Source: Massalongia carnosa (lineage: Eukaryota). Taken from it: 64,000 bases of DNA. Below the pieces are notes generated by a model, which worked only from the letters and a program-made list of their open reading frames with translations, was not told the DNA's origin and did not search any database. Numbering within the stretch: the stretch's first letter is position 1; each line of letters opens with the position of its first letter. Position numbers and translations under genes: made by a program. The DNA is taken from assembly GCA_965645245.1 (NCBI GenBank), contig OZ287071.1, positions 1,798,001-1,862,000 on the forward strand. Direction: 5' to 3'. Shown piece by piece: positions 53,477-64,000 of the stretch.

Positions 53477-54918
53477 AATCGGTAAATAATCCTATAGAAG
53501 GAGGTCTACTCGCTGATTAGGTTGATCACTCTAGGGATTCGCTGCGACGGGTGCGCAGCGAGGTTTTGGAGTGAGCGAGCGACTGTAACAATGGCGGTGA
53601 TTGTAGATTGATAAGGCTAAAGCTGACAACAGGACAGGAGAAAGTAGGCGTGAACAGCTCTGATTCCAAGTCAAATCTAAAGACTAGATCAGTAAGGGCC
53701 TGCACTCGTAGTGAGTAAGACCAAATGATGGACAACGGAAAGGTCGTGTTGACCTCAGACAAAGGTTGATTAAACGGACTAGTGAATCTGCTTGGGTAAG
53801 TGTTACATTAGATATCCGTAATATTTCAGGTACAGAGTACTCTGAGCCAAAACGTTGTATTCCAGAGGAGATCTAGAATAGGCCCGTTCTTTACGGGATC
53901 TTTGAGGTGTAGAGGCTAAGAGGCAACTCAATAATATTGATGGGGAAGGGCTTTGTTACAAAGCATCGGAAGTCCACTGGCCTATTCTGTATAGAGTATT
54001 CTGGACTTATGGGCCGATATAGTACGGGATACAGAGAAGTACCTAACTACGCTAAGAAAAAGTAAAGCCCCCTGACTTGGTTTTCGACTTGACTCCACGG
54101 AGTACAGAGTAACCAAAAATCTGCCTTGGGATAGAGTTAACCACCGAAAGACTGTAATCAAAAAGTGGGCATGTCTTTCTAAGAATCTTTTAACATAATA
54201 TTTCTACTTGGGAAATCCCATGAAATGCTTTTCAAATCTGGATGATTTGTAGCCTTGCGAGTACTAACTACTATAGTGTATCCTGTGTGCGGGACTGTAT
54301 AATATTCTGCCATACTATTGTAAAATTGCTGCTCCTCTATATTACCTTCGTAAGTGACTGTAATGAATACACCGTACAGCATGACACATTTCATACACAT
54401 ATTAATATCAAACTTTACCTTACAGAGTTCTCTGTAACTACTCTGTATCCGGAATTAGTTCTAATTTCTTCCCCCCTCGCCATGCCTCCACTACATTCAT
54501 CTTACCTTCATCGTCGACACTTTGATTCGGATTGCCATATCAACTTCTCGACGATCGGTCTCTGAAGTTGATTTTCTTGGGGGTGATACAATTGTATCTC
54601 ATTTAATGCGGCGTTGCCTGTGTCGCCTGCAAACTCTCCCTTCCTATTATCGATCAATTTGAACGGCTTTTTTTACTTCATTTGGAACCTATATCCCCCC
54701 CCTCTCTCAATCAGCATCCACGCGCCATTTCACCCAACACAGCTACACAACCGGCCATTTTTCCAACTTGGCTAATTGTCCTTACTGGTCTGAACAGACA
54801 AAGAGTGTCGTATTTTTTTCTCGTCAATCGCGACAACCCACCCCTAGAAACCTTAGCTGGACTTCGACCGGAAACAGGATTGAAAGACATTCAGTAGAGT
54901 TGTTGGACGCTGGTTACA

Positions 54919-56802
54919 ATGAGGGAAGTTAATTTCAGCATACCAAATGTCAACAAGGCATCTGTAGGCATAACAACTGCCTTGTATGACCGTCGAGCTC
55001 TCGATTGCACGTCAACTCTCCCCCTCATTAACTCGCTCAACCATCTCGCTTATCTTACAACGTCGTCCGCCCGCATACGAGACATCCTTACTGTTGATGG
55101 TGGTGTGGAGAGGTTAGTGTGCATTCTGAAGAATGGCAGGAGCCAAGAGATGATGGAGATGTGGAAATGGAATCTCGCTTTTCAATGTGTGGTTAACATT
55201 GGGGTTCGGGGATCGGAAAACGTTCGAACAAGAGTTGTTGAAGCCGACATGGTTCCTGTGATCGCTACGATACTCGACAACTACATTAAAGTTATTGATA
55301 AATGCCGTGAGAAAGTTGAGGCCGATGCTCGGCGCAGTGCCTTACGCTCCACCAAGCCAAACGCCAGGATTTCCCCCAGGCCCCAGGTAGAACGTCAAAG
55401 CTTCAATGATCGCGGCAACACCATGTCTGATAACCGAACATTTCGACGTCAAGAACCCCCTTCAGCGATAGAGATACCACAAACCTTCACCCAGACAATC
55501 CACGCAAACTCACAATACCACTCGACAACCCCTACCGATATGGAACTTACTCCTACGTTGCCTCAATTCATTATGGCGTCCCCGCCTGAACGTTTGACTT
55601 TTGCGCGTCATCATCATCACCATCATCACCACTACCACCATCGTAGCCAAGATGGCAGACATCCCCAATATCGAGGCCCTGGTGCTGGAAGTCGTCATAC
55701 GGCCATGCAGTCCATAACAGCATCTGTCCCATCGATGGATCCTGGCGACGGCTTTGGGCTTCGCCCGGTACGAGATGTAGATCGCTTACCATCCATGCTA
55801 CCTGCCCTCCAGAGCGGTATCACATCCCAGCCAGAATCGCCGACAACGCCAGGTGCCCCGTCCGCCCGTCCTACTTTACCCAGCCTCAGGGATAGACGAA
55901 GGTCCTCTATTCGTCAGCAACAATCAAACTCGGGAGATTCAGATGACGCGAACGGGGAGGAAGTTGCTTCCGAGGCCTCTGCTATCAACGAGATCCTTGA
56001 TGACGCCATGATTGACATACAGACTACAGTAGATATCCAAGAGGCCGAGGATCCTATGCTCGACGCAGTCGCCCCGCTTGGCCTTGCTGCGCAAAACGTA
56101 TCCGAAGGACAGGAAGTCGAAACATTTAACATCACCCACCGATCTGTTATTGATGGAAGCATCATCAATGCCAACGTGGTTCCTGCCAATCCCAATGTCG
56201 GGTTCCCCCCAGTTCCGCAACCCATGAATGCTTCAAATGTTCCCCCTCCTACAATGCCACAGAACATACACGCACGATACCTTCTTGATCGATCTGCTCC
56301 TCCAGGTATACTAGCCGCAACGCCCCGTGACGAGGATGTCTTGATGTCCTTGCAGCTTCTAGCTTACGTTTCCAAATACTGCAATCTAAGGACATACTTT
56401 CAGCAGTCTCATCTTGTTCCTAAACTCAAGATTGGTCACAATCTCCAAATGCTCGACGAGAACCCCCCAAACGAATGCATTCCTTTGGAAGAGTCTATGC
56501 AAGAAGAGTACCTGCTTCCGGATGATTTCAATATTTTTCCGCTGGTAGAGAAGTTCACGGTACGCCATCATTCTAATGACATGCAGCATTGGGCTGGTGT
56601 TGTGATGAGGAATCTTTGCCGCAAGGATGATGCTCGAGGCGGTATACGCCAGTGTGCGTATTACGAGTGTGGAAAATGGGAGCAATGGACAAGGCAATTC
56701 GCGAAGTGTCGGCGTTGTCGTCGCACCAAATACTGCAGCAAAGAATGCCAGAAAAATGCTTGGGGTTACCATCGGCATTGGTGTCAGGTTGCAACGCAGT
56801 GA
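54919..56802 (+). CDS. samB: MYND-type zinc finger protein SamB/Mub1
   Basis: Conserved N-terminus MREVNFSIPNVNKASVGITTALYDRRALDCTS; VVMRNLCRKD; C-terminal CAYYECGKWE..RQFAKCRRCRRTKYCSKECQK.AW..HRHWC. Confidence 0.95.
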   Translation: MREVNFSIPNVNKASVGITTALYDRRALDCTSTLPLINSLNHLAYLTTSSARIRDILTVDGGVERLVCILKNGRSQEMMEMWKWNLAFQCVVNIGVRGSENVRTRVVEADMVPVIATILDNYIKVIDKCREKVEADARRSALRSTKPNARISPRPQVERQSFNDRGNTMSDNRTFRRQEPPSAIEIPQTFTQTIHANSQYHSTTPTDMELTPTLPQFIMASPPERLTFARHHHHHHHHYHHRSQDGRHPQYRGPGAGSRHTAMQSITASVPSMDPGDGFGLRPVRDVDRLPSMLPALQSGITSQPESPTTPGAPSARPTLPSLRDRRRSSIRQQQSNSGDSDDANGEEVASEASAINEILDDAMIDIQTTVDIQEAEDPMLDAVAPLGLAAQNVSEGQEVETFNITHRSVIDGSIINANVVPANPNVGFPPVPQPMNASNVPPPTMPQNIHARYLLDRSAPPGILAATPRDEDVLMSLQLLAYVSKYCNLRTYFQQSHLVPKLKIGHNLQMLDENPPNECIPLEESMQEEYLLPDDFNIFPLVEKFTVRHHSNDMQHWAGVVMRNLCRKDDARGGIRQCAYYECGKWEQWTRQFAKCRRCRRTKYCSKECQKNAWGYHRHWCQVATQ

Positions 56803-57275: not shown

Positions 57276-58741
57276 TTAACTTTGCTGTACTTCTCCGCCC
57301 AATGGATTCGTCTGCTTGGCCCACCCGTATGTAGCTACCAGTCGGCTATCCAGGTGCTCTGCCGCGGTCATGATACTGTCGATATTCTCATCTCCACATG
57401 CTTCCTTTATCTCTAATCTCCTCATGCTCACGAGTCTGCTCGGGATTCTAACCAACTTTGTATCATTTAGGGGGTGACAAAAATATGCAATACTGTATCT
57501 GTCTTCCTGCCTATCTGTTGCCATAACTACCCTATGCACTGTACTTTTGAGTAATCCACCTGTCCAATGGTCCAGCAGATCCCCTATGTTAACAAGAATG
57601 GGTGGGTAGTCGTCACTCTCAGTTCCTTGTGGAAAGACAGGAACAGATGACCATAGTAGGTCCTGCGTGAATATTTCTAGCCCTGTTTGTGAGGGTCGCT
57701 GAAACAAGAGAGTTAAGGAGCCTATCGCTATAATTAGTTTTATTACCTTTGTCGTCGAAAGATGTTACCCTTAGGCTACTGGAAATACCGTAATCGCTGT
57801 GAGCACCGGCCCGAACATCATTTGATAAGCTATTGCTTGCTCCATTTCGAATTCTGGGGTACTGGTGTCCAAAAGTCAGTTATGTAACCAAGAGAAACAG
57901 AATGCTAAGTGCGGCTAACATATAGCAGTCGGAGAATACTACCCGAGGAACCTTTTGAGGTATCGTGGCGGTGAGAGAACCAGTGCTCACCTCCACTACT
58001 TTCATCGATCTGGTCTTCCCTATTAGAAGAAGTTCTTGATTCAGCATCGAAGGGAACTACGTACTTCCAGGCCGAGTGCGAAGAGACGGAGCAGCTTGAT
58101 ACAAAGATTACGACAGAGACACTCGAAATGTCTAATCGCATTTTCGTCATTGACTAGCGATCTCGGTAGGGGTTGTTGGGCTTTGCCGTTAACGAATTCA
58201 CCGAAGTTTAACGCTCTGAGTATTGTCAAAGCTAACTCGTGAAAAAATTTAGGCACGCAAACTCTTTAAAGTCTCCTGTCTTCAAGATCGTCAATTGGAT
58301 TTCCATCTTGGAGTTTTTTCTAACAACTTACTTTCTGACTATCTTGATCCAAAATCTCGGAATATGGTGATGACCATCCCATATTCTAGGAGACGTGTTA
58401 AATTATTCCGTAAGTAGAATACCTAAAGAAATATATGTATCATACATTGGGGCTAATTGCACATTTCTCCTTCTCTTCTACAGGAGATTTGAAGAAGTTG
58501 CGTGACTTCTGAAAGCGTTAGGAATGCTTCCATGGTCCCGATACTTCTGTAGAGGGGGTAATTTTGACCTAACCAGTTCGAAAATGGCATCAATAACTTC
58601 GGGCGTAAAGCCTAGTTCCTTCCCCTTGACGAAAACAAACCCCCATCTCGCCGCGGCGGCCACCATTTCATTTCCTGTTTGCGTGTCCACTTGGGAAATA
58701 TTGATAACGGGAATCGAACCTTCTTTCCCTGGGGCCGACAT
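57276..58741 (-). CDS. 2-oxoglutarate/Fe(II)-dependent oxygenase (IPNS/DAO-like), multi-exon
   Basis: IPVINIS...WGFVFV; SILRLLY; RAGAHSDYG (HxD); ILVNIGDLL..WT.G.LKSTVHRV (distal His); RYSIAYF (RxS). Confidence 0.92.
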
Positions 58742-59027
58742 AATAAGCCCAAGTGTGGCTTCTTATTGTTAGGTAGGATATTTGATTCAGGAAGTCCCAT
58801 AGGTTTCACGTAGACAAAAAAAAAGGCGATTTCAACAAATCGTTACTTGTGCTTGGCAATATTTTTTAAATCATTAATTTCGATCAGGCATCCTCAGCTT
58901 CCAACACATCAGCTTATGATATCAACATTAGATGGCCAAACTTAATCATCATGATGGATTCTGGTTAATCTTATCTCTGCACTTACGTACAATACTCGGT
59001 ACTCGTACAAAGAAAAACAAGTAACTA

Positions 59028-59060
59028 GCCACGCGGGGCCAAAAAAAGTTCCCACACCAA
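59028..59060 (+). repeat. Candidate left terminal inverted repeat of a Tc1-like DNA transposon
   Basis: (TA)GCCACGCGGGGCCAAAAAAAGTTCCCACAC resembles Tc1-type termini (GGCCAAAAA...CCAC). The partner repeat would lie beyond the window, so this is unconfirmed. Confidence 0.45.
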
Positions 59061-59327
59061 AAATTTCACCCACCCTAAAAATCCATCTATGACCCTTATC
59101 GGTGCCGTTACCTTCGCTTGCGCTGGGGGGGCTTTTAATTGGATGAATTGATTTGAATGCTTGAATTTGATTGGGCATGGGAACGACACAGGTCAGCCCG
59201 GGCAGGCCTAGGCACGTGACTCGGGGTCGGTGCTGAGGTGAGAACCTCATCTTCTAGGCCCGAGGCGTCTGCTGACGCTCAACGATCCGATAGATGATGC
59301 CCGACGGCAGTGCCCGACGGCGATGAT

Positions 59328-60491
59328 CTAGATGGAGGTGCCCGGCGGCGCTCCGGATCGATGCCCTGGTTGACCTGTACGCCCAATGGAATGCCCAATT
59401 GAGTAGGGGTAGGAGTTTGTAGGATTCGTCTCGGCGACGACAGCACGTGGGACTGCTAGAGGGATGCCTTTTTGAAAACTGAGGTTCAAATTGAATAGTG
59501 AGGCCTGGGACGTCTGAAAGTATAGCTGAAACGCGTTTGATGACCATCTTCCGAGTCTCTGAATACTCTCATCCAGCATCCCGTGGTCGGCGGCGTGTTG
59601 TGCTGCTCCTTTTCTGAAGCTGTGTCCCGAGTATGCCGAGTCGTTGATGCCGACGGCTATCAGTCTCTTTTTCAGGGATGCTATGACGGAGGCTCTGGTG
59701 AATGCGGTGCCGAGACGAAAAAGCGGGGATGTAGATGGCTGAGGATCATTTCTGAAAAGACGCCGTAGTGCTGTCACGGGGCAAGTGCTCTCATTGGTCG
59801 CTGCCAGCACTATCTGAACTCCTGAGTGATTTGTGTCTGTTTTGCTTCTTTTGAGACGTAATGTCGCGTATTGATCGTTCTCGGCGAATGAGATGTCACC
59901 TCGTGTAGGTTTCAATCTCTGAAAAGATGTCTTCTTACGATCAGCGACAGTGTAGGTGATTTCCCCGAGTCTGAGGAACCCTGCCCATGCAACTTTGAAT
60001 GTCGCGTCGATGTTGAGGTCTTCGGCCGAATGAGCGGGAATACTGGTGATTTTTGTCAGTAATTCTTTTGAAATGGGTAGGCGTCTTCTTTTTGTCTGAG
60101 AAAAGATCCTTTTTCCCCCTTTCAGCATCAATTGAAGTCTCGGCCCCTCGAATGGGGTGAGGCCGTATCCTCGGTCTACATGGTATGATCTGAGGCCGGC
60201 GAGGTAGCTCGCTGCCGTCTCTGGTTTTATCTTTCCCTGCTTGGGTGTGCCGCCCCCGTATAGTCGACCGGCTAGCCATTCCTCGAGGGACTCGGTTGTT
60301 GCAGGCCACGACGTGCGTCCCGTCGTCGCGCAGAATGCCTCGTATGAGTCGATCGCCGTCCCGTACCCTTTTCTCGTGTCCGCCGAGTGTCCGTGCCAGA
60401 CGAGACGTTTTACCAGGGCTGACCCTGGTGTGGAGGATAGGTAGGTGGAGGGAGGTTCATCGAATTGTATGGGTTCTGCCAATGAGGGCAA
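59328..60491 (-). CDS. Tyrosine recombinase (phage-integrase family) of the YR retrotransposon
   Basis: Complete catalytic set: FLRLGE (R), KRSKTD (K), SGHSFRKG (HxxR), LGRW (W), FQLY (Y). N-terminal SAM-like core-binding region (TRKGY...SYLAGLRSYH). Confidence 0.95.
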   Translation of the reverse strand: MPSLAEPIQFDEPPSTYLSSTPGSALVKRLVWHGHSADTRKGYGTAIDSYEAFCATTGRTSWPATTESLEEWLAGRLYGGGTPKQGKIKPETAASYLAGLRSYHVDRGYGLTPFEGPRLQLMLKGGKRIFSQTKRRRLPISKELLTKITSIPAHSAEDLNIDATFKVAWAGFLRLGEITYTVADRKKTSFQRLKPTRGDISFAENDQYATLRLKRSKTDTNHSGVQIVLAATNESTCPVTALRRLFRNDPQPSTSPLFRLGTAFTRASVIASLKKRLIAVGINDSAYSGHSFRKGAAQHAADHGMLDESIQRLGRWSSNAFQLYFQTSQASLFNLNLSFQKGIPLAVPRAVVAETNPTNSYPYSIGHSIGRTGQPGHRSGAPPGTSI

Positions 60492-62113
60492 AAGTTAGCC
60501 AATCTTTCATCATCAAAACGTGACAGGGCATCTGCTAGTCCATTGGAAGTGCCACTGATCCATTGACAACGTAGTACGATGTCCCACTTTGCAGCTATGG
60601 ACAGTATTTCTCGTAGAGGCGCGTTGGCCGGTCCCTTGAGGGTTAGATTCGTGAATCCTGTGTATGCTGTGTTGCTGTCGGTAAAGACAAGGATCTGTCG
60701 ATGTCGCCATGTCGGCGCCCATTTCTGAAGGATTAGAAGGATAGCTTCGACTTCTCGGACGTTTATGCTCGGTGATCCTTCCTGATTGAGGACTAGGACT
60801 CGGGCCCTACATGCGTTTTTTTGATTCACGAGCTCGTTGTCTTGTTGAAAATAGCCTCCGAGACCCGTGAGGCATGCATCCGTATGCACCTTGATCGTGT
60901 CTCGTGTTGACGTCTCGAAGAAGACAATACCGTTGAAGTCCACTAGAAGTTTGTTCCACCAGATGAGATCCTGTCTGACCCATGTGGGAATTCTTCTTTT
61001 GACCCGACGATGACTGCCCGAGGGAAATGAGGCTATAAAATTCCAGAATAATCGTAAGAAGACTCGGCCCAATTTGACTGCCTGTGCGCAGAAGCTTAGG
61101 AAGCCCGCTATTGACTGCATGTCGCCGAGGCTGATTGTCGTCTCGTTTAGTGCCTTTGTAGTGATGATTCTCGCTTTTTCCAGCTTGTCCGCTGGCAGAC
61201 GAATAAGACTGTTGATGGTGTCGACCTCGAGTCCGAAGACTGTCGCTGTCGTTCCCTCGGCGTCTTTTGAGTCGTTTCTCGGGATGCCAAGAATGTCGGT
61301 GAGAATGTTGTAGGCTTTTGTTTCTTGGTGCAATCGTTCTGACGATGTCTCGGATGGGAAGATTGCAACGAAGTCGTCTAGATAGTGATGTAATCTCCAT
61401 TGTAGAAAGGATTTCAAAATCCAATGAAAGCCTTCCGCAAAAAGATTGAAGATGAACGGGGCCGTCGACAGTCCGAACGAAAGGCATGTCTCGGTGTAGA
61501 ATTCGTCATTCCATCCGAAACCCAGAAGCCATTGATGATGAGGTGCGACGGGAACGTTTCGAAAGGCGTCTTTGACGTCTCTTTTCACTATGACAGCACC
61601 TTTGCCCGCTGACAGAATCAATTGAATAATGTCGTCGAGTCTGGCGTATTGTAATTTGGATGCCTCTTCTGGAATGTTGTCGTTGACTGATGTTTGATTG
61701 GGATGAGACAGATGATGAATGCGTCGCCATCCTCCGTCATGTTTCGGGACCAAGCCGAGGGGGGAGGCCACAAATGGCTGACTCGGGGCGGCTATTCGTC
61801 TGACTCGGCCCTTCCTGAGGTCCTCTTGGAGCTTATTCTCGATCGTTTCCGGGTCCTCATTCGCTGATGTCAGATTTTTTTCGATCCGAAGGATGTCTGT
61901 GGGGCCTTCGTATCCGATTTGTACTCCGAAACGAAGGATCATGGGCAGATGGACTCGGAGGGGGCCCGGATACTCTTGAAGTAGAGTTGCCCATGCGGAC
62001 GGTACGAGGGGAGATGGGCTGTCTTTCAAACGCTGACGAGATGCGTCTACGAGTTGAAACGAAGGGATTGTATTTGGTCTGATTGGTGCAGGTAAGCAGG
62101 GATGGGACGTCAT
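60410..62113 (-). CDS. Reverse transcriptase / RNase H of the YR retrotransposon
   Basis: SPLGLVPK..GGWRRIHHLS, KRDVKDAFRNVPV, LSFGLSTAPFIF, HYLDDF. RNase H: VHTDAC..GLGG, INVREVEA, FTDSNT, WISGTSNGLADALSR. Confidence 0.96.
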   Translation of the reverse strand: MTSHPCLPAPIRPNTIPSFQLVDASRQRLKDSPSPLVPSAWATLLQEYPGPLRVHLPMILRFGVQIGYEGPTDILRIEKNLTSANEDPETIENKLQEDLRKGRVRRIAAPSQPFVASPLGLVPKHDGGWRRIHHLSHPNQTSVNDNIPEEASKLQYARLDDIIQLILSAGKGAVIVKRDVKDAFRNVPVAPHHQWLLGFGWNDEFYTETCLSFGLSTAPFIFNLFAEGFHWILKSFLQWRLHHYLDDFVAIFPSETSSERLHQETKAYNILTDILGIPRNDSKDAEGTTATVFGLEVDTINSLIRLPADKLEKARIITTKALNETTISLGDMQSIAGFLSFCAQAVKLGRVFLRLFWNFIASFPSGSHRRVKRRIPTWVRQDLIWWNKLLVDFNGIVFFETSTRDTIKVHTDACLTGLGGYFQQDNELVNQKNACRARVLVLNQEGSPSINVREVEAILLILQKWAPTWRHRQILVFTDSNTAYTGFTNLTLKGPANAPLREILSIAAKWDIVLRCQWISGTSNGLADALSRFDDERLANFCPHWQNPYNSMNLPPPTYPPHQGQPW

Positions 62114-62158
62114 GAATTCAGCTATTGAAGCTATTCTACTGCCTCCTGCACCAACCCC

Positions 62159-63173
62159 CTATTTCTTCGTTGGGCATGTCTTCTGGCCATGCCCAGCCGC
62201 GCCGCACGATTTACATTTGTGCTGTCGGTAGCACGACGGCCAGGTGCAGGTGCCGCTGTTGTACTTGTCGCAGATTTCCCCCGCTGCCTTCTCGGCCCTA
62301 TCGGCCCTGTCTCCTCTCGGGGTCGGTCGCCGGGACGGCGGGGATCGTGAGCGGCGACGGCGTAGGACTGTGAGGGGGGTGCAGAATCGAGCTTGGAATT
62401 CGTCGGGCATTTTCCATTGGGATGCGTCGGATGGCTGAGACGCGATGATGTGAGTGTGGGTTTCGATGGCGAGGGGGAGGACTGCTTCCTGCCACTCGTA
62501 CACCTTGGCCAGCGTGAGGATTTTTCCGTGGAATGCCGACATGGTGGCGTGAAGCTGTTGACTCGATTTCCCGAAAAGACTGACCATGATCGAGGTGTAG
62601 TTGATGAAGCTCTCGGTCCAGACGTCATGAACTGTCTTTCCGAAATCTTTGTAGGTCCCGGATGCCTTTCTCAACCTCAAGGCGCCGTCTTCGATGCCGA
62701 TGCGGTCCTAATCCTTGTAGGACTCGTATTGCATGCCGTGCATGTGTCGGAGGCGGGAGAGGTTGATGGCTTTGAATTTATTTGAAAAGATCTTGATGAT
62801 CTCGTCCTGTGGTAGGCCCGCGAAACGGGGTGCTATACTTCTTACTTCGAGAGGGATCTCACCTAGGTCCTCGTCGTCATCGCCGACGACACGACTCGGC
62901 TTGCCAGCAGGAATGACGGCCGCTATTCGGGCGTCAGATTCTCGGCGCATGCAGTCGATTTCTAGCTGCATTTTTTCCACCTCCTTCTCGGCGACCAATG
63001 CCTTGGACTCGGCAATTCTGGCCTCAGCCTCGGCCGCCTTCGCTTCTGCCTCGGCTTTCTTCTTTTGTAGGGCGAAGATTTTGATTGGACTGGGCCTGCG
63101 TCAATCCGACAATCTCCTGGGAGTCGGGGACTATGTCGTCCATCGGGGTGCTTTGGGAACGGGTGTTCGTCAT
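62159..63173 (-). pseudogene. gag-like ORF1 of the YR retrotransposon, with one frameshift and one nonsense codon
   Basis: ATG at 63173 (MTNTRSQSTPMDD). Removing one base in the run at 63079-63082 joins the coiled-coil frame (IFALQKKKAEAEAKAAEAEAR). In-frame TAG at 62708-62710. C-terminal CDKYNSGTCTWPSCYRQH and CKSCGAAGHGQKTC zinc fingers. Confidence 0.85.
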
Positions 63174-63180
63174 TGGGAAA

Positions 63181-63319
63181 AAGCACCGACAGCGAGGTAG
63201 GGGCACCGAGGACAACGTGAGGTCGACGACGAGTCAGTGAGATGGGAAAAGCAGCAAGCACTGACAGCGAGGTAGGGGCACCGAGACAACGTGGGGTCGA
63301 CGACGAGTCAGTGAGATGG
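63181..63319. repeat. Direct duplication of about 65 bp (63181-63245 and 63256-63319) in the 5' leader of the YR element
   Basis: AAGCAC[C/T]GACAGCGAGGTAGGGGCACCGAG(G)ACAACGTG[A/G]GGTCGACGACGAGTCAGTGAGATGG; two substitutions and one indel between copies. Confidence 0.95.
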
Positions 63320-63441
63320 ATGAGGCCGAGTGAGAAGAAGTGGATGAGGAAAGAATTTTCAGAGGGTGATTCTTAATTTACTTTGACTCAGGGGCCTCAC
63401 GTGACATAGAACCATCTCATCTTTTACCCAACTCCCTCATT

Positions 63442-64000
63442 ATGAATAATCAATCATCAATTAATCGTTCTAGTACACCTGATTTTGATGATCATAACTG
63501 TAATCAGGAGTATTCTACGCCCATAAAAGCTAAAGTTCAAGCTGTTGTTGAATTTAATGATGCTCATAAAATTCTCTATTTTAAAGAAGACGTTTTTCGT
63601 CATTTCGGCGTGGAACGAACGAGCGGTTATGCCATGCTTCGGGGCGAATCATCTCGTCGATTTCATCACAACTCGGTCTGGCCAGAGCTTCGAGGTAGAA
63701 AAAAAGCGATTGATTGGGAGACTCTCAAGAGACTGGAGGAAATAATTGAAAATGGAGGTATTCAAGCTCGAGCTATGTCCTGGTATCAACTGGCCAAAGA
63801 AGTAGGCCTCGTGGGCAGTAATCGAGTGCATTGGCACACCATCAGAAATACTATGCAGGACTTGGAATATCACAAATGCATCGCTTGTACGAGGACCTGG
63901 ATTGCTCCTCATCTTCGTGCTTTAAGACGTACTTTTGCACGAGATAAAATCACCACTTGGACATTGGAGGACTGGAAGTTGGTTCGTTTCAGCGATGAAG
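63442..64000 (+). CDS. Tc1/mariner-superfamily DDE transposase, 5' part (runs off the window; missing from the ORF track)
   Basis: My translation is open for 186 codons: MNNQSSINRSSTPDF...STPIKAKVQAVVEF...DVFRHFGVERTSGYAML (HTH), RGRKKAI (GRPR-like linker), SWYQLAKEVG...VHWHTIRNTM (second HTH), WTLEDWKLVRFSDE (first catalytic Asp motif of Tc1-type enzymes). Confidence 0.9.
   Translation, partial: MNNQSSINRSSTPDFDDHNCNQEYSTPIKAKVQAVVEFNDAHKILYFKEDVFRHFGVERTSGYAMLRGESSRRFHHNSVWPELRGRKKAIDWETLKRLEEIIENGGIQARAMSWYQLAKEVGLVGSNRVHWHTIRNTMQDLEYHKCIACTRTWIAPHLRALRRTFARDKITTWTLEDWKLVRFSDE

Follow-up and report, generated by a model that had tools for sequence, protein, structure and literature searches.

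Structure of the nested locus

The stretch of Massalongia carnosa DNA analysed here (hereafter the window; 64,000 nucleotides, positions 1798001-1862000 of contig C5, GenBank OZ287071.1, in a 52-Mb assembly of 25 contigs) ends inside a Tc1-like DNA transposon whose left arm holds a tyrosine recombinase (YR) retrotransposon of the Ngaro type. An initial annotation had already placed the YR element in that arm, and had offered three explanations: a chance nested insertion, a YR element that targets Tc1 leaders, or a composite unit. The features of the locus, including those past the end of the window, are listed in Table 1.

Table 1. Features of the nested locus in window numbering (TIR, terminal inverted repeat; ORF, open reading frame; RT, reverse transcriptase; RH, RNase H)
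Feature	Position	Strand	Remarks
Left 5-bp target-site duplication (CTAGC) of the DNA transposon	59025..59029	.	Right copy past the window, 64714-64718
Left TIR of the Tc1-like element, outer 56 bp, beginning CACGCGGGG	59030..59085	+	Family end search, empty siblings
Ngaro-type YR retrotransposon, short form A1-gag-RT/RH-YR-B1, 4,334 bp, without A2-B2 repeats	59086..63419	-	
B1 split repeat, 300 bp, equal to B2 of full-length copies	59086..59385	-	End bears the element's TCT junction core
Tyrosine recombinase ORF, open, 388 aa stop to stop	59328..60494	-	R, HxxR, W and Y motif residues in translation
RT + RNase H ORF, open, 582 aa stop to stop, YLDD	60410..62158	-	
gag, C-terminal zinc knuckle, broken in the window copy	62159..63173	-	Frame change near 63079, stop near 62710
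A1 split repeat, 176 bp	63244..63419	-	Overlaps a two-unit 75-bp tandem repeat, 63181-63319
Left TIR, inner 33 bp, with the transposase ATG	63420..63452	+	
Tc1-like transposase, first 186 of 383 aa in the window	63442..64000	+	ORF ends at 64593
Right TIR of the Tc1-like element	64627-64713		Past the window by 0.7 kb

The terminus near 59030, the transposase start and the gag ATG proposed in the initial annotation were all borne out: the left end has an inverted partner beyond the window, the transposase ORF stays open for 383 aa, and 268 bp lie between the two ATGs. The YR element is inserted after base 56 of the 89-bp left TIR, which it splits into 56 + 33 bp, with host bases neither lost nor gained. 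In empty copies of the transposon family the two TIR halves are contiguous (...AAAATCCA^TCTTTTACCC...); because these copies join the halves directly, the YR element is nested in the transposon and is not its neighbour. Other predictions had to be revised. Removal of the YR element leaves a leader of 78 bp (56 + 22) in place of the expected 150-250 bp, and the transposon is flanked on both sides by CTAGC and not by a duplicated TA, which explains why a TA had seemed misplaced at the left end; the inverted end expected past the window is present, but its flank is CTAGC as well. The insertion had been thought to spare both TIR and ORF. The ORF is indeed open, but the ~89-bp TIR is cut, and 56 of the 78 leader bases are separated from the ORF by the YR element.

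The whole nested unit measures 5.68 kb and was found at one locus, where its paired outer ends and the CTAGC duplication around it are intact. Of four contig sets from sequencing runs, two extend on either side as far as the TIRs, without any set spanning the stretch or revealing an empty site; the other two look like traces of the same organism, and the sets hold no evidence on polymorphism or expression.

The transposon family and its empty copies

Without the YR element, the window transposon is 1,350 bp long and carries a single ORF between its TIRs, in keeping with the ~1.3-kb, one-ORF layout of the Tc1 family (Sleeping Beauty; impala, DD37E; Intruder, DD38E). A search with positions 59015-59090, in which all 23 candidates were scored, returned 11 pairs of ends and one diverged relative. 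Uninterrupted family copies span 1,348-1,351 bp and one deleted copy 1,278 bp; their TIRs of 87-89 bp start with CACGCGGGG and contain an ATG at base 79, and the window copy is 97.8-99.5% identical to eight siblings. The search for empty copies proposed with the initial annotation was rewarding, since 10 of the 11 two-ended family copies lack the YR element and the exact junction was fixed. YR ends were also absent from all 43 other paired CACGCGGGG-type elements (on the contigs listed, among 100 of 117 ends), as well as from four further pairs of this type that completed the largest family. Several other family members hold unrelated insertions.

The YR retrotransposon family and its target site

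Pairing of end motifs, for which 100 of the 103 matches at A ends and all 98 at B ends were used, yielded ~96 YR loci, comprising 48 short, 12 full, 10 solo and 8 otherwise altered forms and 18 single ends. In the parts of the sources consulted, the Ngaro layout is described as split direct repeats, A1-ORFs-B1-A2-B2 (PMC3783388, PMC13465315). This arrangement recurs in the 12 full copies (A1-ORFs-B1-A2-spacer-B2), whereas the window copy and the other short forms have A1-ORFs-B1, and solo units measure ~530 bp. The family further resembles Ngaro in its gag-RT/RH-YR order, in the absence of a methyltransferase match (no Dam match at E <= 0.1) and in the lack of a true target duplication. Matches of the YR ORF to Phage_integrase and Phage_int_SAM_1 were weak and under the curated cut-offs, as was that of RNase H. 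Short and full forms stand at 4:1, and two length subfamilies of ~4,316 and 4,334 bp were observed. Recombination of the repeats, YR-catalysed exchange among the three junction cores or reverse transcription of RNAs of reduced length could each have produced the short and solo forms.

The 36 copies compared are 97.3-99.9% identical to the window copy. Alignment of the latter with one full copy revealed four differences, two of which break gag, and gag is open in both copies aligned to it. Because gag is broken and the internal junction template is absent, the window copy would be unable to replicate in cis and would thus have lost its autonomy. RT relatives at ~44% identity were found in Aspergillus fischeri, Talaromyces and Penicillium; the named fungal relatives are filamentous ascomycetes, and two rows bearing bacterial metagenome-assembled genome labels are taken as misbinned. 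Together with the named relatives of the transposase, these matches point to an ascomycete as the host organism. In the portion seen of the survey of fungal Ngaro clades by Muszewska et al. 2013, one truncated remnant stands for all Ascomycota (PMC3783388). Unlike that remnant, the present family occupies ~96 loci, mostly as short A-ORFs-B forms, and all three ORFs are open by motif test in 8 of the 36 compared copies.

Outer B ends read TCT-ATGA at 80 of 80 distinct junctions, although most of these loci were picked by a pattern containing TCT and aberrant ends are under-sampled. At the outer A ends (n = 57), the element terminates in CATCTCA, or in a sequence differing from it by one base, and is followed by T (91%), C (58%), T (88%) and then A/T (96%); the host triplet at this end is variable, with ATCTCATCT in 30 of the 57. 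Since TCT is constant at the B end and the A-end triplet varies, the former belongs to the element and the latter to the host. Read in this way, the junctions place strand exchange immediately 5' of the triplet, and what looks like a duplication in the window would be microhomology to the circle junction. The resulting target motif, t^T(C/T/A)T(A/T), is loose. Identical or almost identical outer flanks recur among several YR copies (L263, L026 and L028; L269/L272; L262/L274; L091/L281; L224/L246), often near contig ends, which could reflect duplicated segments, carriage in another repeat or local hot spots.

Origin of the nest

Two independent events, amounting to an ordinary single nested insertion, very probably account for the locus. 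A 1,350-bp cut-and-paste transposon of a Tc1-related fungal lineage with C(A/T)(A/C)GC ends would have inserted first, duplicating CTAGC. Later, a short-form copy of the recently amplified Ngaro family would have been recombined in by a tyrosine recombinase, at a TCT site located by chance 56 bp into the left TIR. With a circle junction CTCA^TCTAT and a target TCCA^TCTTT, exchange would place TCT from the element at the B end and the triplet from the host at the A end, and for this reason would produce no true duplication. Chance insertion, the first option of the initial annotation, fits these observations, as the nest occurs at one locus and its siblings are empty. As in ordinary nests of fungal transposable element (TE) clusters, a younger element sits in single copy inside an older one; nothing essential sets this nest apart, its distinguishing marks being an insertion within a TIR and an ORF left open.

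YR copies with Tc1-type surroundings amount to four nested and five adjacent among the ~96 loci. The three other nests involve different families and positions, and each is single-copy. On C1 (L291:2079-7835; C1:2732078-2737834), a short YR copy occupies the right arm of a TA-flanked DD34E Tc1 element, 54 bp from its end, and spares the ORF and both TIRs, with 11 of 11 sampled siblings empty. The C2 nest has its YR element mid-ORF in a canonical Tc1-like transposase, and the C7 nest lies in a remnant resembling a miniature inverted-repeat transposable element (MITE) inside a five-copy repeat, 4 of 4 siblings of which are empty. The five adjacent copies are 60-490 bp from Tc1-type elements that retain their own TIRs. 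Additional nests suggested by tblastn beside YR copies on C19, C22, C15, C16 and C7 were rejected as mere neighbours, an intact TIR of the Tc1-type element lying between. Because the nests differ in family and position and each is single-copy, they argue against both a composite and leader-specific targeting. Specific targeting of Tc1 leaders, the second option of the initial annotation, is not supported: 1 of the 80 distinct outer B-end junctions falls in the left TIR of an autonomous-size element of the lineage.

Some observations weigh against a simple nested insertion. The C1 nest also spares ORF and TIR, so that near-intact composites arose twice. Four nests and five near neighbours among ~96 loci may exceed chance; the probability of at least four nests is 0.003, 0.03 or 0.20 if Tc1-type DNA makes up 0.6, 1.2 or 2.4% of targets, fractions that are assumed. 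Moreover, a single-copy composite that moved in and left its donor would be indistinguishable from a nest formed in place.

The alternative that survives best, although we consider it unlikely, is a preference of the Ngaro family for Tc1-type elements or for their ends, arising from open chromatin common to both, AT/CT-rich arms or capture at DNA bound by transposase, so that nests recur above chance without sequence-specific targeting. The count of four nested and five adjacent copies, obtained from 80 B-flanks and 57 A-flanks, points in this direction, yet the nests lie in four different host families and positions, and the neighbouring Tc1-type elements retain intact TIRs. Similarly, three of the four nests fall within ~56 bp of an element end, and the target motif recurs at intervals of 15.5 bp in the transposon against 25 bp across the window, a density 1.6 times higher; YR copies are nevertheless also present in long terminal repeat (LTR) element DNA and in unique DNA, and the abundance of Tc1-type elements, together with TE clustering in gene-poor DNA, predicts the same pattern.

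A functional composite, in which cut-and-paste ends carry the retroelement and its A1 repeat serves as a divergent promoter for gag and transposase, is very improbable. In its favour, the unit retains both outer ends, the 5-bp duplication and an open transposase; against it, the left TIR is interrupted, the cargo has a broken gag and lacks A2-B2, and the unit exists at one locus only, with the YR element in 1 of the 11 two-ended family copies. Since some relatives have TIRs of only 26-50 bp, the 56 bp at the outer end may be enough, and on C2 the intact ends of one family copy enclose other insertions over a span of 7.5 kb; the 5.68-kb unit might still be excised in trans via its outer ends, although there is no sign of movement. 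The same A1 is present in all YR copies, leaving nothing adapted to this locus. A single nested insertion thus remains the preferred explanation.

A Tc1-like lineage with 5-bp target-site duplications

The lineage of the host transposon has more than 100 copies in the genome, where relatives share ~46-75% protein identity and all end in CACGCG; Tc1-type elements as a whole are highly abundant there, with 954 and 218 first-look candidates. The named transposase relatives are all filamentous ascomycetes (Colletotrichum, Botrytis, Pyrenophora, Bimuria, Ophiobolus and Eremomyces), and lineage relatives are spread over several ascomycete classes; none was found in the viral contigs searched. The termini of metagenome relatives are CAAGCG, CACGCG, CTCGCG or CAAGCT. 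Unlike the TA-flanked family of the same genome, which has CAG ends, the host lineage ends in CACGCG, CAAGCG or CTCGCG.

Target-site duplications of 2-9 bp were tested in 38 distinct genome elements with both ends, and in 20 distinct metagenome elements, derived from 80 loci, with both ends matching the terminal pattern. An exact 5-bp duplication flanks 30 of the 38 genome elements (33 if one mismatch is allowed) and 13 of the 20 metagenome elements, one other of which shows an exact 6-bp duplication. Among the 38 genome elements, exact duplications of 3, 4 or 6 to 9 bp were absent and exact 2-bp duplications occurred in three. A TA duplication was rejected, TA standing on both sides in 0/38 genome and 0/20 metagenome elements. 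A control DD34E Tc1 family of the same genome carries TA at 11 of 11 right ends and at the nine left ends found, which demonstrates that the method can see TA when it is present. The duplicated 5-mers have a G+C content of 69-75% and are loosely symmetrical, following S(C/T)W(G/A)S. On the other side of the balance, eight genome and seven metagenome elements lack an exact 5-bp duplication. The 5-bp non-TA duplication of the host lineage is well supported, and suggests that end joining by the transposase involves a 5-nt stagger at G+C-rich target sites, instead of a 2-nt stagger at TA.

Exceptions to TA do exist, since Tc4 and TBE1 make 3-bp duplications. As far as the consulted parts of these sources go, a TA target duplication is a shared trait of the IS630/Tc1/mariner superfamily (PMC7325037), and fungal surveys give TA or no defined duplication (PMC2836289, PMC4188875, PMC3227409). 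No description of a Tc1-like lineage with 5-bp duplications was found in the literature searched, which did not extend to Repbase, Dfam, subscription journals or supplements; nor is one given in the portions seen of PMC2836289, PMC4188875, PMC3227409, PMC7325037, PMC11544213, PMC5751038, PMC10085805, 10.1101/562892 and 10.1101/2021.09.26.461848. An earlier description, for example in repeat libraries, is quite possible.

Several arrangements of lineage members were observed in passing. The flanks of three 5-bp-lineage copies (L213, L214 and L215, on C19, C11 and C13) are identical both left and right; these copies are apparently embedded in a larger repeated element and may represent a real passenger composite. 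Two family copies lying 6.6 kb apart (L087/L088; C6:2494661-2496008 and 2501308-2502656) share flanks and duplication in opposite orientation, which suggests a local duplication plus an inversion between TIRs. Another family copy (L089:3411-5015, C9) lies within ~127 bp of near-identical DNA in inverted orientation on its two sides, and the 5-mers beside it are mutually reverse-complementary. Pairs of CACGCGGGGACC ends only ~240 bp apart (C9:1830254-1830489 and C12:441262-441505) are candidate MITEs of the lineage. TA-type and 5-bp-type Tc1-like elements often adjoin or nest in one another (L217:1489-4109, L184, L222).

Transposase fold and CxxC motifs

The host transposase matched the Pfam domain DDE_3 above cut-off (E 5e-14) and HTH_Tnp_Tc3_2 weakly, with no match to RAG1. 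Its sequence matches in PDB were confined to Sleeping Beauty (E 7e-21 by profile) and, weakly, Mos1. Sleeping Beauty was the best PDB match by sequence, profile and fold, followed by Mos1 and SETMAR; these three account for the 15 best fold matches, and the matches listed include no chain of Transib or RAG. In its domains and its Sleeping Beauty/Mos1 fold the protein is therefore like the Tc1 family, from which the element departs by a G+C-rich 5-bp duplication in place of TA. The catalytic triad comprises D185, D282 and E321 (DD38E), unlike the DD34E of Tc1 sensu stricto and of the TA family of the same genome (spacing 34). Among 60 aligned relatives, 42 of the 46 that could be scored have a DD37E-DD38E spacing, within a range of 37-42. 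The comparison with impala (DD37E) and Intruder (DD38E) is by spacing alone, which does not place an element.

Two CxxC motifs are located at positions 146/149 and 208/211, their cysteines (C146, C149, C208 and C211) being kept in 59, 57, 52 and 58 of the 60 aligned relatives. The first pair occupies the position of KKRPLL in the TA-type Tc1 elements of the same genome, with which the host transposase shares 22-28% identity; the host linker thus reads YHKCIAC where TA-type elements have a KKRPLL-type sequence, and a second CxxC is present in addition. The structure model has low confidence at residues 206-218, around this second motif. In Mos1, the linker pairs with the partner's clamp loop beside the target DNA, and by analogy a cysteine-stapled linker/clamp loop is a candidate cause of the longer stagger. 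In a tree of 17 rows from a quick search, with frameshifted loci omitted and no named references, 13 rows labelled 5-bp and three TA rows fall on opposite sides of one branch (Shimodaira-Hasegawa-like approximate likelihood ratio test, SH-aLRT, 100); the 5-bp label of row L138 is uncertain and may stand for a 7-bp duplication.

CAC termini and a 5-bp G+C-rich duplication are the hallmarks of Transib, and the host resembles Transib/RAG signal ends in both. That it is a Transib-like element and not a Tc1 relative would explain its CAC-type termini and its duplications of 69-75% G+C, but is scarcely conceivable and already refuted at the protein level by the DDE_3 match, the lack of a RAG1 match and the PDB and fold matches given above. 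The transposase is Tc1-like, unlike the RAG1-like protein of Transib, and the likeness of the ends is convergent. Transib is furthermore reported absent from fungi in the part consulted of PMC5751038.

We tentatively propose, with somewhat less than even confidence, that the host represents an undescribed, widespread fungal branch of Tc1/mariner that has switched from TA to G+C-rich 5-mers, cut with a 5-nt stagger, and bears Transib/RAG-like CAC ends. This switch would be carried by the two linker-replacing CxxC motifs in the clamp-loop region, possibly as a zinc staple between subunits.

Genes beside the transposon

Two host genes lie to the left of the transposon. An ORF at 54898-56802 (+) ends in a MYND-type cysteine pattern and is presumably SamB/Mub1-like. 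An intron-split gene at ~57276-58772 (-), which we take from its motif to resemble a 2-oxoglutarate/Fe dioxygenase, has the transposon ~280 bp upstream of its likely start.

Implications

The nest itself matters little, and the host lineage matters more. A recent ascomycete Ngaro burst with full, short and solo forms constitutes a second, smaller novelty, which corrects the picture of near-absence in Ascomycota, and the ~80 YR junctions pinpoint where a tyrosine recombinase of a retrotransposon exchanges strands. TE annotation based on structure depends on TA, and an element of Tc1 fold that duplicates G+C-rich 5-mers would be missed or misfiled. Because open natural copies exist, its stagger and target choice are testable against Sleeping Beauty and Mos1. 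If the proposal holds, the lineage would offer a natural system in which to study how stagger length and TA specificity are determined in the Sleeping Beauty/Mos1 fold, as well as an integration tool with a target spectrum complementary to that of Sleeping Beauty.

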